Source: Eubacteriales bacterium (GTDB lineage: Bacteria > Bacillota > Clostridia > Oscillospirales > CAG-272). From it: a stretch of 64,000 nucleotides of DNA. The stretch covers positions 381-64,380 of the forward strand of contig JAZQXE010000103.1 of NCBI GenBank assembly GCA_045632705.1. Reading direction: 5' to 3'. The position numbers and the translations under genes were made by a program. Below are positions 267 to 8,459 of the stretch, in pieces (the stretch's first letter is position 1; each line of letters begins with the position of its first letter). The notes beneath the pieces are model-generated. The model saw only the letters and a list, made by a program, of their open reading frames with translations, did no database searches and had not been told where the DNA came from.

Positions 267-824
267 TCAGCGTATCGGAGTGAGCTTTCCGTCCGTGACG
301 CTGACAGACCACGCGTCTGCTACGGCTTGGGGCGGGTCTGCCTGTATTGCCGTTGCGATCACTTCGATCTGCATAGCGTATCCGTCGGGTGCACTTGTGA
401 GCTGTGTAATTGCATCTGCAAGGGGATTTGTCGTAGTATCGGGTGCTACTCTATCGGTATAATACATATATCCGTCAGCTCCCAGCTCCCATCCGTACTC
501 ACCGTAGAGGATAGTATAATCAACGCTCAATTGAGGAGAGGCAGCGAGTACCTTGCCGTCTTCTGACACCCAGTTTACGATTATCGTTGCTCGGATATAG
601 GCGTCGATCTCGGAGGTGTTTCTGACGCTTACGTTCTTAGTGAGCGTCCCCTCCGTCTCTCTTTCTACCTCGCAGCTAACGTAAGTGGGAAGGAACGTAT
701 TCGTTACCGTATCTGTCGTGCTCGTGATGTAAGCAAACACACCGCCCACGCCCAAGATGAGCAACGGCAAGACCGAGCAGAGAAGGGCGAGCAGCGCCTT
801 TGTCCGTTTATTCTTTTGTTTCAT
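267..824 (-). CDS. TasA/camelysin-like secreted protein with SipW-type signal (paralog 4)
   Basis: The N-terminus MKQKNKRTKALLALLCSVLPLLILGVGGVFAYITSTTDTVTNTF matches the pattern basic residues, hydrophobic stretch, G-G-x-F-A-Y, then NTF, as in the TasA N-terminus. Last gene of the sipW operon. Confidence 0.65.
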   Translation of the reverse strand: MKQKNKRTKALLALLCSVLPLLILGVGGVFAYITSTTDTVTNTFLPTYVSCEVERETEGTLTKNVSVRNTSEIDAYIRATIIVNWVSEDGKVLAASPQLSVDYTILYGEYGWELGADGYMYYTDRVAPDTTTNPLADAITQLTSAPDGYAMQIEVIATAIQADPPQAVADAWSVSVTDGKLTPIR

Positions 825-862
825 TCGGCGTCGTCCTCCTTTGCCTTGAATTTGCCTTGATA

Positions 863-3800
863 TTAGTCGTTGTACGCAGCGTTGCCGTTACCGTCAAGCC
901 ACTTGTTGTTAGTTCTCGTTACGTCAAATATAATGACGTTGTCAGACGCTGCATGCGAGAGCGTCGTCGTCTTTGTTAATTCTCCGATGTTGTATCTCCA
1001 CGACCAGTCACTCTCGAGGATAACGTCGTATTCGCCAACGGGCAGCTCGGTTATCGTCTTTGAGGAATTTCCGTAGAGGGTAACGGTGAGCAGGATACCC
1101 TCGCTCTCCGTGCCGTCCTTTCCTTTTATTACGAAGATGAACACCTGATCCGTGTCAGATGCCTGTGCATTCTGCGTCTTTATGGTAAGGTCGGTTTCCA
1201 TTGAAATGAATTTAGCGTAGTACGTGACGTCTTTCCAAACCTGTCCGTTTGATTTTGCAGGAGTGAGCTTGTTAGTTTCGGGAGAGATGAGGGAAGCATC
1301 CGCCTCTTCGGTGCAAGCGGCGTCCATATACCAACCGACGAATTCAAAACCGTTATTCGTCATCGGTGTAGAGCCGTTTGGCTTGCCGGAAATAGCGAGT
1401 ACGTTTTCCGACTGATAGCTGAGTGATCCGCATCCGTCGGGACCGATGATCTGATACTTGATAGATACGATATCTTCAACGTAGATAAATTTGATCACGT
1501 TGTGCTCGGGGTTTGACGAGAGGGAAATTACCTTTATCGGATCACCTACGAGCGTGTAACCGCTGCTTAAGAGATCGAGGGCGTTTTCAACGACCTGCTC
1601 ACCGTAGTGCTTGGTCACTACCTTTGAGGGATATATCTCGGTATCTGTGCCGTTTTCAACGTATTTTACCGTGTATTCTACGTCGATACGGTTGTAGTAT
1701 AGCTCTATGGTCATACCCTCTGCGGTCAGCTTTGCACTGACAAAGTTCGTTTCTACGGGCGTTAGCACGTCGTTTACTCGTGTCATAGCTCCCACAAATT
1801 TAAATCCCGTGAGAGTGATCGCGTCTACCGTGTAGTAAGAACCGATGACGCCTACGCTCTCGACAGAGCGGTATTCGCGGTAGGAATCGAGTGAAATGTT
1901 CTCGATATAATGCACGACTCGGTAATAAGCGTGCTCCTCGTCTGCGTGATAATAGAAGGTGATAACGTTGTTGTCAAGAACGCCGTCTCCGTCTTCATCC
2001 TGTCCGGAGGCTGAAAGCACGAGTCGCTTTTGATATGCGTCAGGCATCATTTTATCGGTCTTGACGAACGTTTCCGTAACGACGGAGAGCGTGTTATTCA
2101 TGACGTATTTCGTGTCGTGTATCGTCTCTCCCGTGTCCTTGTTTACGTATCTGACCGCGTACGGCATAGATTCAACGTAAACGTATTGGAAGGTAAACTC
2201 GTGCACGCCGTCAACGCTCATCGTTATCGTGTGGCTGTTGACGAGGGGATAATAACCTGTTCTGAAGCCGTCGTAGAGATCTTCTCCCGCCTTTGCGTCG
2301 AAAGTCTTGTTGTTACCCGCAATAGCGCTTCCGACGGTGGAATCCGCTATCTTTTCTCCTGTCTGGTAGAGAACGTAGTGTATAGTATAATTTACCGTTG
2401 TGTGCGAGCTCCATTTAGCGTAGATCTCGATGTCGTCGATTATCGGAATACCCGTAAATACGAACGCCTTCTCGACCTTCTTTCCGTCTACGATATCGGT
2501 GTAGAACCAACCCTGGAATACGTAGTTGCCGTTTGTGACGTTTGTCGAAGGAGCTTTTGCAAAGTCCTTGTGAGCAACGCTCTGCGTATCTCCTATCTGA
2601 GTCGTGAGCGTAGCGTCGAGATAGATCTTGACCGTGTGGCGTATCGGCTCCCATTTAGCGTAAAGGAGCATATCGCCCTCCGACATCGTGATCGTGTTCC
2701 AGTCTACCTCCGTACCTGCAAAGCATCCGGGGGAAGTGTACCAACCGCCGAAGGTATAAGCGTTAGGCTCAAGGTTGGCGGGATAATCGGGAATGAAATT
2801 ATATTCCTGAAGCGACTGACCGTACGGGATGCCGTAGACGCTCTTTGTGTCGAGCAGTATACCGTTGCTTGAAAATTCAAGCACGTGGTCGGTAACTCTG
2901 TCGTAGTAGAAATGTACCGTCTTATCGGAGGAGCTGATACTTATCTGGTCGTTTGAAGCAAAGTTCGGATTTGAAGACGACTGATAGAAGCCGTAAATAT
3001 CAAAGAAGTCCTCGTCTCGCGTTACGTAGTTGTATTTTGCCTTTATCGTATTTGTGAGAACATAGTACTTGTCGTTGTATTTGTGAGTATACGCCTCACC
3101 ATCGAGTACCTGCAGATAATAGTTCATCGTGTAGGCACTGTAGCTGGCCTTGTTCAAAGTAAGAGTAAAGTCGTCCGGCGGCATATCCGACAGATATACG
3201 AGAACGGCAGAGTAATAGTCGGAGGATGACGGTTGCCATCTTTCACCGTCATCGTAGACCACGCCGTTGTCGTCGGTGATAGGCCATATATCCGCAATAG
3301 ACTGCTGATACTTTCTGTATATTACCTTTACCGTATTTGTGGAAGAAGAGCTCTTACACGTGTTTGAATGGCTGTGAGAGGGGGTAATGCCGCAGTGCAG
3401 TCTCTTGCAGGCGTTGCCGTGTGTATGCTCAACGTCTCCGCACGAATAAACGTAGCAGGAGCCGGTGTGCATGTGTATAACGTCACGGTAGCAGTTTTCC
3501 GTGTGTCTGTGCTCGGGCAGAGGGCAGGAGCAGTTGACACCGTGTGTATGCTCGACGGAATAACCGCAGGTCGGGTCGATCACGTCTCCGTTTGACGCGC
3601 CGCGTCCGTTATATTTGTACCACGTTCCCTTGATGTAAATGTAGTAGGTGGTGCCGCGCTTGTATATCTCGCCTTCATCAGGGTTTGAAGGTGCATTCTT
3701 TGGAGGCGATGATTGCTTCGTTCCTACGTCTTTGTAGCAGGAGGTGCTGTGCGTGTGGACTTTGAGTGTACAGTTGCATCCTGCGCTTCCGTGTGTATGC

Positions 3801-7728: not shown

Positions 7729-8367
7729 TTATTCTCCCGGGTGGGAGTCGTCCGTCTCACCGTTCTTGTTTTGCGACTCCTGCTCGCCGTCCTTTTTGTC
7801 GGCGGGCGTCGTGTCAGCTACGGGTGTTGGGGATTCGTTGCCCCCGTCAGAGACGGCAACGTCGTCCTTTCCCGTGATAAAGTCGGCGGCAAACATCAGC
7901 AAAATGAAGAGAGCACATACGCCGATGGTCACGTACGACCACGGGGGAGACTGTATGTAGACCGAAACGTAACCGAGAAGAGGAATGGAAAACAACGGCT
8001 TTCCGATCACGTTTTTAGAGGAGAGGAGAGTTCCGTCGGGATCGTCGTTTGCATCTCCTTGGGTTTGAAAGTATATCGTGTCGGGCTTTGAATCGTCGTA
8101 GATGACATCTATTATTCTGTGCGTGACGACTATGTTTCCTTGCATAACGTAGGTCACGGGGTCGCCTTCTTTAAGCTCTTTGGGATCCACGTCCTTTACG
8201 TAGATGAGAGAACCCACGTGGTATTCAGGCTCCATGGAGCCTGAGAGAACTGCGTACGGCTCGAGTCCGACGAGTCTTACACCGACGAGGAGAATTGCGA
8301 GTATTACGATGATCACGATCGGGACCGTGGTCACGACGGTGTATATTTTCTTTGCTTTACTTGACAT
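7729..8367 (-). CDS. sipW: signal peptidase I, archaeal/ER (SipW) type
   Basis: An N-terminal TM segment is followed by LSGSMEPEY (catalytic Ser box) and VTHRI (His box), with no Ser-Lys type box. A second TM segment and an acidic tail form the C-terminus. Confidence 0.85.
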   Translation of the reverse strand: MSSKAKKIYTVVTTVPIVIIVILAILLVGVRLVGLEPYAVLSGSMEPEYHVGSLIYVKDVDPKELKEGDPVTYVMQGNIVVTHRIIDVIYDDSKPDTIYFQTQGDANDDPDGTLLSSKNVIGKPLFSIPLLGYVSVYIQSPPWSYVTIGVCALFILLMFAADFITGKDDVAVSDGGNESPTPVADTTPADKKDGEQESQNKNGETDDSHPGE

Positions 8368-8431
8368 TGCGACTTGATCCTTCCGTGTTGAAAATGGGCA
8401 AAATACTACTTATATATAATATAATATATTA

Positions 8432-8459
8432 ATTATACTCAAAATAACGAATATGTCAA
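8432..8459 (-). promoter_or_regulatory. candidate sigma-A promoter of the sipW operon
   Basis: The minus strand reads TTGACA (8459-8454), a 16-nt spacer, then TATAAT (8437-8432), about 65 nt upstream of the sipW ATG in an AT-rich intergenic region. Confidence 0.5.

Follow-up and report, generated by a model that had tools for sequence, protein, structure and literature searches.

Fibers of the TasA/BsaA type represent a third route to surface filaments in Gram-positive bacteria, besides sortase pili and type IV pili. To our knowledge, work on them has so far been almost entirely restricted to homopolymers from Bacillus and Clostridium perfringens. Here, a six-gene operon that probably encodes a fiber of this type is described from a 64,000-nucleotide (nt) stretch of a Eubacteriales genome (contig JAZQXE010000103.1 of assembly GCA_045632705.1; Clostridia, Oscillospirales); this full stretch is referred to as the window, and all coordinates are on its numbering. 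The operon encodes, in order, a SipW-type signal peptidase, three small TasA/BsaA-like proteins named for their lengths in amino acids (aa; P235, P182, and P249), a large multi-domain surface protein (the adhesin), and a fourth small protein (P185).

In C. perfringens, SipW is needed for the formation of extracellular BsaA polymers (PMC7395162). BsaA occurs as membrane-anchored oligomers whose subunits are joined by donor-strand exchange, and each joint is locked by an isopeptide bond between N35 and K74 with E56 as the catalytic residue, a process termed “exchange and lock” (bioRxiv 10.1101/2024.11.04.621531). This Asn-Glu-Lys triad is absent from TasA and is present in more than 100 BsaA-like proteins (bioRxiv 10.1101/2024.11.04.621531). 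Operons in which several BsaA/TasA paralogs lie beside SpaA-domain and other surface proteins have also been noted, and donor-strand heteropolymers have been proposed (Kivimaki et al., bioRxiv 10.1101/2024.11.04.621531). Moreover, TasA-CalY heterofilaments have been demonstrated in B. cereus (PMC13082335). The principle of multi-paralog operons, heteropolymers, and an isopeptide lock is thus already in the literature, with the multi-paralog operons beside large surface proteins and the heteropolymer idea dating from 2025-2026, and the gain from the present locus is one of extension and detail rather than of a new category; a remark in an initial annotation of this stretch, that the arrangement was not one recognized as characterized, was overstated in light of these precedents. 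What is new is a widely conserved cassette, found in uncultured gut Clostridia, of four paralogs and a giant adhesin, together with a triad that is spread unevenly over those paralogs, a conserved intercistronic RNA hairpin, and a Cys/His module in the adhesin.

Putative counterparts of the BsaA triad were located in the small proteins as the Asn of an NTF donor motif, a Glu situated 13 residues further on in the first core strand, and the Lys of a KDP motif, and their conservation was followed in ortholog families built from 40 related genome loci. P235 (235 aa; 6934-7641, minus strand, as are all genes of the operon), the candidate major subunit, carries all three residues in each of its 31 orthologs (31/31 at each position; N38, E51, and K83 in the window). 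The same is true of P182 (182 aa; 6331-6879), a minimal TasA/BsaA-like subunit, in 33/33 orthologs at each position (window N36, E49, and K65). In P249 (249 aa; 5585-6334), the Glu and the Lys are present in 23/23 orthologs and the Asn in 14/23; the window copy has a Thr at the Asn position, and its donor segment is devoid of any Asn. P185 (185 aa; 267-824), a BsaA-family-like subunit, presents the opposite picture, with N42 in 32/32 orthologs, E55 in 26/32, and K62 in 28/32. Its window copy has R55 and T62, with E54/E56 and K63 adjacent, a variant that is shared by a 92%-identical relative of P185. When aligned with TasA using hhalign, N36 of P182 falls on A37 of the TasA donor strand and K65 on TasA K68. 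Because the full triad is found in P235 and P182, an acceptor-only set in P249, and a mainly-donor set in P185, the distribution of these residues across the paralogs suggests an ordered heteropolymer.

Judged by sequence profiles rather than by fold matches, all four small proteins belong to the TasA/camelysin/BsaA superfamily, as distant but genuine members. Their families are mutually homologous (hhalign probability 97.3-99.9%), with most pairs aligning across 146-174 columns and P235-P185 across only 49; the P182 family aligned to those of P235, P249, and P185 with probabilities of 99.9, 99.2, and 98.7%, respectively. No small protein taken alone gave a significant Pfam match. Against Peptidase_M73 (PF12389), the window copies of P249 (15.7 bits) and P182 (12.8 bits) fell below the gathering score of 22.5, and P235 and P185 gave no match, whereas matches at E <= 0.01 were obtained for 17/23 P249 orthologs, 7/32 P182 orthologs, and 21/46 proteins with about 40% identity to P235. 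P185 matched TIGR04090 (BsaA family, SipW-dependent biofilm matrix protein) at E 2.6e-10 across model positions 10-90 of 241, with a score of 40.4 bits against a cutoff of 60; 30/31 of its orthologs matched this model at E <= 0.01 (best 4.2e-15), and P235, P182, and P249 did not match it. TIGR04088, the SipW-cognate signal model, was matched by P249 (21.4 bits, above the cutoff of 19) and not by P235, P182, P185, or the adhesin. The TasA/camelysin identity put forward for these proteins from the letters of the sequence is supported among the orthologs (Peptidase_M73 and TIGR04090) and by the signal match of P249, but not at the level of full-family scores for the window copies. An A-[YFL]-[LIF] leader motif can be seen by eye in all four proteins. 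The more detailed pattern that had been assigned to all of them, a cleavage motif followed by an N/T-T-F-T segment, holds approximately: it fits P235 and P249 well, with P182 (A-L-I-M-G) and P185 (NTFLPT) deviating from it.

Comparison with a TasA reference, checked to be identical in sequence to PDB 8aur_A, placed the P182 profile (residues 1-70; hhalign probability 69%, E 4.4e-5) and the P249 profile (76.5%, E 2.2e-5) on the part of TasA that runs from the signal through the donor strand to the first core strands; the P235 and P185 profiles gave no significant hhalign alignment to TasA. All four paralogs also have in common a C-terminal A-x-A-[IV]-Q strand that appears, by reading of the sequences rather than by alignment, to correspond to F-E-A-T-Q of TasA. 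The AlphaFold2 model of P235 (predicted local distance difference test score, pLDDT, 89.4) consists of a signal helix (residues 2-26), a disordered stretch (30-40) that holds the donor-strand segment, and a beta-sandwich; BsaA monomers are likewise reported to be disordered in this segment. Its top PDB match in Foldseek was the TasA fiber (8aur_A), albeit a weak one (E 3.2e-3, template modeling score 0.28), and lower in the list came the archaeal bundling pilin AbpA (7ueg), at rank 9, and chaperone-usher pilins. The P185 model (pLDDT 91.8) is also a beta-sandwich and had no significant PDB match in Foldseek; Fim, Pap, and Saf pilins were among the weak structural matches of P235 and P185. An exhaustive search recovered 6,779 cluster representatives of the P235-type family at E <= 1e-3, a number that falls to 832 when the threshold is tightened to 1e-30; essentially all of them are unannotated. 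A profile search with the P185 family also reached unannotated proteins only and no named BsaA protein. As a separate observation, P235 and its orthologs carry an acidic insertion at residues ~52-75 (e.g., SKVDSDGQDADGASKTSDGNSY), lying after the Glu strand and before the KDP strand, with D-x-D-G-like motifs that recall calcium-binding loops; P182 lacks this insertion.

The 40 loci were recovered in a scan of one genome per GTDB species and derive from uncultured Clostridia of the ruminant and human gut, namely Oscillospiraceae, Acutalibacteraceae, Faecousia, and “Eubacteriales”, and more distantly Christensenellaceae and Lachnospiraceae. An identical order, sipW-P235-P182-P249-adhesin-P185, is found in 24/40 loci, and two more that are cut by contig ends are consistent with it; a survey of gene order, one of the checks proposed at the outset, thus returned the same six-gene arrangement from at least 24 species-level gut metagenome-assembled genomes. 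The genes that flank the cassette differ between loci, and the P185 gene always directly follows that of the adhesin. Reduced variants (e.g., L014 and L043) retain sipW, a P235-like gene, the adhesin, and P185, with L014 representing a minimal cassette devoid of P182 and P249. Extra genes occur as well: L034 and L043 carry additional P235-like copies (two or three in some loci), while L025, L028, and L031 have an additional TasA-like open reading frame (ORF) between the P249 ortholog and the adhesin gene. Given these variants, the number of paralogs is flexible in evolution around a fixed core, and the retention of the module as a unit across many species fits a multi-subunit fiber that is co-expressed with a large surface protein. 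In L001, a 776-aa protein encoded directly 5' of sipW (264-2594 of that locus) has a clear Peptidase_M73 domain and a faint Glug match, and may be a further SipW substrate fused to a larger protein.

The adhesin (863-5470; 1,535 aa) is predicted to be a secreted multi-domain surface protein. It has Flg_new/InlB-B repeats (Flg_new, E 3.6e-18 in Pfam), and four of them were placed near residues 365, 905, 985, and 1377 by reading of the F-x-G-W motif and not from a domain table. Among 25 orthologs, domain matches were to Flg_new (25), Flg_new_2 (8), DUF5979 (5), SpaA (2), MucBP (2), and DUF7601 (1); the MucBP-like repeats are weak, with Muc_B2 at E 0.034 in the window and MucBP in 2/25 orthologs, and the ortholog matches indicate a C-terminal SpaA/DUF5979/DUF7601-like domain. 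Full-length identity is 53-62% among the core loci and lower in L034 and L043. Per-column conservation is 26-33% in the first ~150 residues and highest, at 70-87%, in residues 250-500. Residues 505-705 (3356-3958) comprise a Cys/His-rich module, recognized in a motif listing, of ten H-x(1-2)-H-x(2-5)-C units in two clusters, for which no Pfam family was found. In the 25 orthologs, 19/19 of its Cys residues are invariant or nearly so (18 fully, C705 at 96%), as are 20/21 of its His residues (19 fully, H560 at 96%), and the module looks like an extracellular array of metal sites, possibly for zinc. A search of the PDB found no relative of the adhesin.

As first annotated, the adhesin has no LPXTG, SLH, or choline-binding anchor: motif scans found no LPXTG-like motif other than an internal VPDAN and no second, C-terminal hydrophobic segment, and Pfam scans found no SLH or choline-binding domain even at E <= 10. 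More broadly, neither an LPXTG motif nor a C-terminal hydrophobic segment was found in any of the six operon proteins, and the operon contains no sortase gene. A further suggestion, that the adhesin leader (ALPAFSTDAS) echoes the SipW/TasA cleavage motif, was not supported by comparison with the orthologs, which conserve P-[VA]-[FL]-S-[AST] instead, followed by a variable acidic linker, and none of which has an NTF motif; nor did any TasA-like profile match the adhesin. An N-terminal GVTINYGG segment was also considered as a donor strand and was dropped because it is not conserved in the orthologs.

Taken at somewhat better than even confidence, the reading that we prefer is that the operon encodes a SipW-dependent, donor-strand fiber of the BsaA/TasA type that is locked by isopeptide bonds, in which P235 and P182 propagate the chain, P249 forms an acceptor-only end, P185 serves as initiator or adaptor, and the adhesin is co-displayed. 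Under this model, the operon would be transcribed from a housekeeping-type promoter, and SipW, judging from homology, would remove the specialized signal peptides of the four paralogs, exposing in each an N-terminal donor strand that bears the NTF motif. By analogy to TasA and BsaA, this strand would insert into the beta-sandwich of the next subunit, where conservation of the triad points to a Glu-catalyzed Asn-Lys isopeptide bond that would lock the joint as in BsaA. P235 and P182, with donor Asn and acceptor Glu/Lys in every ortholog, could then act as chain-propagating subunits. P249, having only the acceptor pair, may sit at a chain end that needs no further donor lock, and P185, with its donor Asn and degenerate acceptors, may sit at the opposite end as a TapA-like initiator or adaptor. 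The adhesin would be co-produced and probably displayed on or beside the fiber. The gene content, the homologies, the conserved gene order, the residue patterns, and the RNA structure are observed directly, and the mechanism and the roles of the paralogs are proposed from them. The heteromeric fiber that the initial annotation envisaged is partly supported by this analysis, through its SipW-type peptidase, the homology of the paralogs to each other and to TasA/BsaA, and the conservation of the cassette as a unit; a TasA-like domain or donor strand in the adhesin was not supported.

Several observations weigh against this model. The match of the triad to N35/E56/K74 of BsaA was inferred from motif position and the TasA alignment and not from a direct alignment with BsaA, and the Asn-to-Glu spacing is 13 residues here versus 21 in BsaA. 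Loss of triad residues in P249 and P185 is lineage-dependent rather than universal. All window paralogs fall short of the curated full-family cutoffs (at most 15.7 versus 22.5 bits for Peptidase_M73, and 40.4 versus 60 for TIGR04090), Foldseek lends P235 little support and P185 none, and PDB sequence and profile searches with P235, P249, the P235 family, and the P185 family returned no TasA, CalY, or BsaA chain. The NTF donor motif is missing from the adhesin in every ortholog, and no TasA-like domain was detected in the adhesin, its best hhalign probability being 16% and confined to the signal peptide. Finally, in C. perfringens, BsaB neither polymerized nor was cross-linked to BsaA, and BsaC was secreted alone (bioRxiv 10.1101/2024.11.04.621531); by this behavior, paralogs in the same operon need not be fiber subunits.

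This last point leads to the strongest competitor, in which P235 alone polymerizes, the other paralogs act as chaperones, nucleators, or anchors in the manner of TapA, CapP, or BsaB, and the adhesin is secreted independently, like BsaC. C. perfringens BsaA does polymerize by itself, and still does so in bsaB and bsaC mutants, while BsaB forms only dimers that are not cross-linked to BsaA; TapA and CapP are described as chaperone-like factors, and the adhesin is devoid of a TasA-like domain. Such a scheme has difficulty, however, with the full triad of P182, which is as invariant as that of P235 and hard to explain in a protein that does not enter the chain, and with the complementary acceptor-only and mainly-donor residues of P249 and P185, which fit chain ends, as well as with the maintenance of four paralogs in a fixed order in at least 24 species. 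We consider a P235 homopolymer with accessory proteins possible but less likely than the heteromeric fiber. It could also be argued that no fiber is formed and that the small proteins are monomeric secreted or cell-surface beta-sandwiches (binding modules or camelysin-like factors) with only a SipW-type leader in common, given that their structural matches are to generic beta-sandwiches (cohesins, carbohydrate-binding modules, and pilins; E > 1e-3) and that their Pfam matches lie mostly within the N-terminal 35-70 residues. Yet the paralog families other than the P235-P185 pair align far beyond the leader, the C-terminal strand apparently corresponding to that of TasA is shared, the monomer model shows no order in the donor-strand segment, and a monomer would have no evident use for the invariant N, E, and K. 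We regard a purely monomeric function as very unlikely.

The initial annotation also raised the possibility of a spore-surface appendage, expressed in the mother cell and decorating the spore, from the adjacency of the cassette to a cotJ operon. The host, which has cotJA, cotJB, and cotJC, is a spore former; 170 nt separate the cotJC stop codon from the cassette downstream of it; and in one other locus (L030) cotJC lies ~4 kb from a P235-like gene. The adjoining gene is, however, only a 3' fragment of cotJC: the match of ORF 8633-9148 to the Mn-catalase/CotJC profile is limited to profile positions 65-197, with CotJC sequence (...ELAHIEM...) at 9078-8633 on the minus strand, whereas CotJC residues 1-65 (...LTDIGTEE, followed by a stop) are encoded on the same strand at 46158-45966, preceded by cotJB and a cotJA-like ORF that extend to ~46900. 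Both junctions carry the core AAGAAT (45968-45963 and 9078-9073). The intervening 36.9-kb element (9073-45968) encodes a large serine recombinase at one end (9293-11050), a large terminase subunit (16661-18196), and a capsid gene (21421-22428), the latter two of which identify it as a phage; it also includes, on the plus strand, an ORF for a 5,524-aa polyvalent protein (28839-45413) with MuF_C, PBECR3 nuclease, several LPD3, and ART-PolyVal (ADP-ribosyltransferase) domains. The separated halves, shared core, recombinase, and phage genes together indicate that a prophage of the SPbeta/skin type interrupts cotJC, and the SipW operon lies outside this prophage. Intervening elements of this type are excised during sporulation. 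A quick literature search found no papers that describe a prophage-split cotJC.

The remainder of the cotJ operon is thus 36.9 kb from the cassette, across the prophage. No cotJC is seen in those loci that extend 4-10 kb upstream, and L001 and L003 have unrelated flanks. Between the cotJC stop (8633) and the sipW promoter lies a hairpin (8582-8620) with a 17-bp perfect stem and A5/T5 flanks that has the shape of a bidirectional terminator; the terminator said to set the cassette off from the cotJ operon is therefore present, although what it borders is the 3' portion of cotJC and not an intact operon. The cassette has its own candidate sigma-70/sigma-A-type promoter (TTGACA-16-TATAAT, 8432-8459, minus strand, ~65 nt 5' of the sipW ATG), which matches the consensus at 12/12 positions and is the top-ranked site across 12 kb, and sites of this type with no more than one mismatch in 12 recur 30-120 nt upstream of sipW in 12/29 related loci. 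Pfam searches at E <= 10 gave no match to Ena-type or other spore-appendage families. With the cotJC fragment explained by its position beside a prophage insertion, and with cotJC near the cassette in L030 only, we find a spore appendage very unlikely.

The layout of the operon is otherwise as initially annotated. The six ORFs span 267-8367 on the minus strand in the ORF list, in the order and at the positions given there, and the promoter, the ATGA overlap, and the terminator are all present. Intergenic gaps are, in operon order, 87, 54, -4, 114, and 38 nt. The negative value reflects the overlap of the P182 stop and the P249 start as ATGA, visible in CCGAGATGAAAACT, which would couple translation of P249 to that of P182. 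The reported product sizes of 235, 182, 249, and 185 aa also stand, that of P249 by virtue of an ATG at 6334: a mechanical ORF listing gave 5585-6364 (259 aa), but the N-termini of orthologs match at the ATG that is seen in CCGAGATGAAAACT, and this start was preferred. Ribosome-binding sites (AAAGGAGG) precede four of the genes. The operon ends in an intrinsic terminator (195-229, minus strand; 16-bp stem and U6) with a folding energy of -20.9 kcal/mol (z-score -6.57; 0/200 shuffled sequences fold as well), and a terminator scan found no strong internal terminator with a U-tract within the operon.

The 114-nt spacer between the P249 and adhesin genes folds at -39.9 kcal/mol (z-score -6.35). 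Its main hairpin (5502-5548, minus strand), identified by folding and comparative alignment, has a counterpart at the same position in 8 further distinct loci (L001, L007, L008, L009, L012, L018, L028, and L031). The base of the hairpin (GGGYGCAGA/UCUGYGCC) is conserved and its upper stem covaries, 12/20 pairs being compensatory in the window and 7 aligned loci. A pattern search found one copy in the window and one in each of 7 of these 8 loci, and no further copy either in the window or across the 629 kb of loci searched; the hairpin of L007 has a variant 3' end that the search pattern missed. Because the pattern is found once per matching locus and only at the P249/adhesin position, a dispersed element resembling repetitive extragenic palindromes was rejected. 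No Rfam family was found, sub-threshold matches being to terminator hairpins only, and the window copy is without a U-tract while some orthologs have one. In C. perfringens, a terminator after bsaA results in two mRNAs, a short one of sipW-bsaA and a read-through one of the operon (PMC7395162). The hairpin after P249 is probably a partial terminator or mRNA stabilizer that sets the ratio of subunits to adhesin, and on the bsa precedent it would leave the adhesin and P185 less expressed than the subunits encoded before them.

The first gene of the operon (7729-8367, minus strand; 212 aa) encodes an archaeal/ER-type signal peptidase I, as had been recognized from its sequence. It passes the curated cutoff of TIGR02228 (sigpep_I_arch; 104.9 bits versus 51.85) and falls below that of the Bacillus SipW equivalog NF046067 (96.5 bits versus 190), and by these scores it is a SipW-type enzyme that lies outside the Bacillus SipW ortholog group. 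Across 30 sequences, conservation is 93% or higher at S42-G-S44-M, T82-H83, and D111. From established knowledge of SipW, we take S44 (in SGSM) and H83 (in THR) to be the catalytic Ser and His of an enzyme of the Ser-His rather than the Ser-Lys type. Two hydrophobic membrane segments (residues 5-42 and 141-168) were recognized. The second is followed by an acidic, low-complexity C-terminal tail of ~40 residues (~170-212; window 7729-7860), the length of which varies among orthologs (total 166-226 aa).

The cassette offers a natural case for asking how the order and polarity of subunits are encoded in a fiber through donor, acceptor, and capping paralogs, and the predictions made here at the level of residues are directly checkable. 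It also points to a possible adhesin for mucus or host glycans on such fibers, and to a family that is missed by current Pfam and NCBIfam cutoffs and whose homologs are carried as hypothetical proteins.

Compared with the sipW-bsaA-bsaB-bsaC(-bsaRSD) operon of C. perfringens (PMC7395162; bioRxiv 10.1101/2024.11.04.621531), the window operon likewise opens with sipW and continues with TasA-like paralogs and, after them, a large secreted protein; neither has a sortase signal, BsaA and the candidate major subunit P235 each carry an N-E-K triad (putatively equivalent in P235), the subunit genes are followed within the operon by a terminator or other RNA structure, and P185 is the window paralog that matches the BsaA model TIGR04090. 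The two differ in that the window operon has four paralogs rather than two, of which the fourth follows the large protein, that this protein is a 1,535-aa Flg_new/MucBP-like/Cys-His/SpaA-like protein rather than a 70-kDa vWA protein, and that there is no two-component system. In addition, the window paralogs score below curated cutoffs and share the triad unequally. With the tapA-sipW-tasA operon of B. subtilis (8aur; PMC9674648, PMC10151520), the window operon has in common a dedicated SipW-type peptidase, an N-terminal A-F/Y leader motif ahead of the donor strand, the K-D motif represented by TasA K68, and, apparently, an A-T-Q strand at the C-terminus, and TapA, as a strand-donating accessory, is analogous in the role proposed for P185. 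The B. subtilis operon, in contrast, has another gene order, a single fiber subunit, and no giant surface protein. TasA has an Ala at the donor Asn position, so that it forms no isopeptide lock, and its similarity to the window proteins is confined to ~70 N-terminal residues at E ~1e-5.

An experimental precedent for a heteromeric fiber is provided by sipW-tasA-calY of B. cereus with CapP, where two TasA-family paralogs co-assemble independently of sortase (PMC13082335). This system differs in having two paralogs and an unrelated chaperone-like protein, with no adhesin gene and no isopeptide locking cited. Archaeal bundling pili (AbpA, 7ueg; PMC9245690) and threads (PMC9715654) resemble the proposed fiber in donor-strand complementation and a TasA-like fold, to which threads add isopeptide bonds, but they are homopolymers that have no cassette of SipW, paralogs, and adhesin, and no detectable sequence similarity to the window proteins. 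Chaperone-usher and sortase pili are functional analogues only: in both, a major shaft subunit, minor subunits, and a tip adhesin make up an ordered heteropolymer, the former assembled by donor-strand exchange and the latter by isopeptide bonds. A more specific version of our preferred reading, which we put forward as a rather doubtful but attractive proposal, is an ordered, sortase-independent heteropolymeric pilus in gut Oscillospirales that combines donor-strand joints with Asn-Lys locks, is initiated by P185 and terminated by P249, and recruits a metal-binding, MucBP-like adhesin via P185. If true, it would constitute a Gram-positive counterpart of chaperone-usher pilus architecture. It would do so from an operon that lacks usher, chaperone, sortase, and LPXTG motif, with a bond that is proposed to form autocatalytically inside the donor-strand joint.

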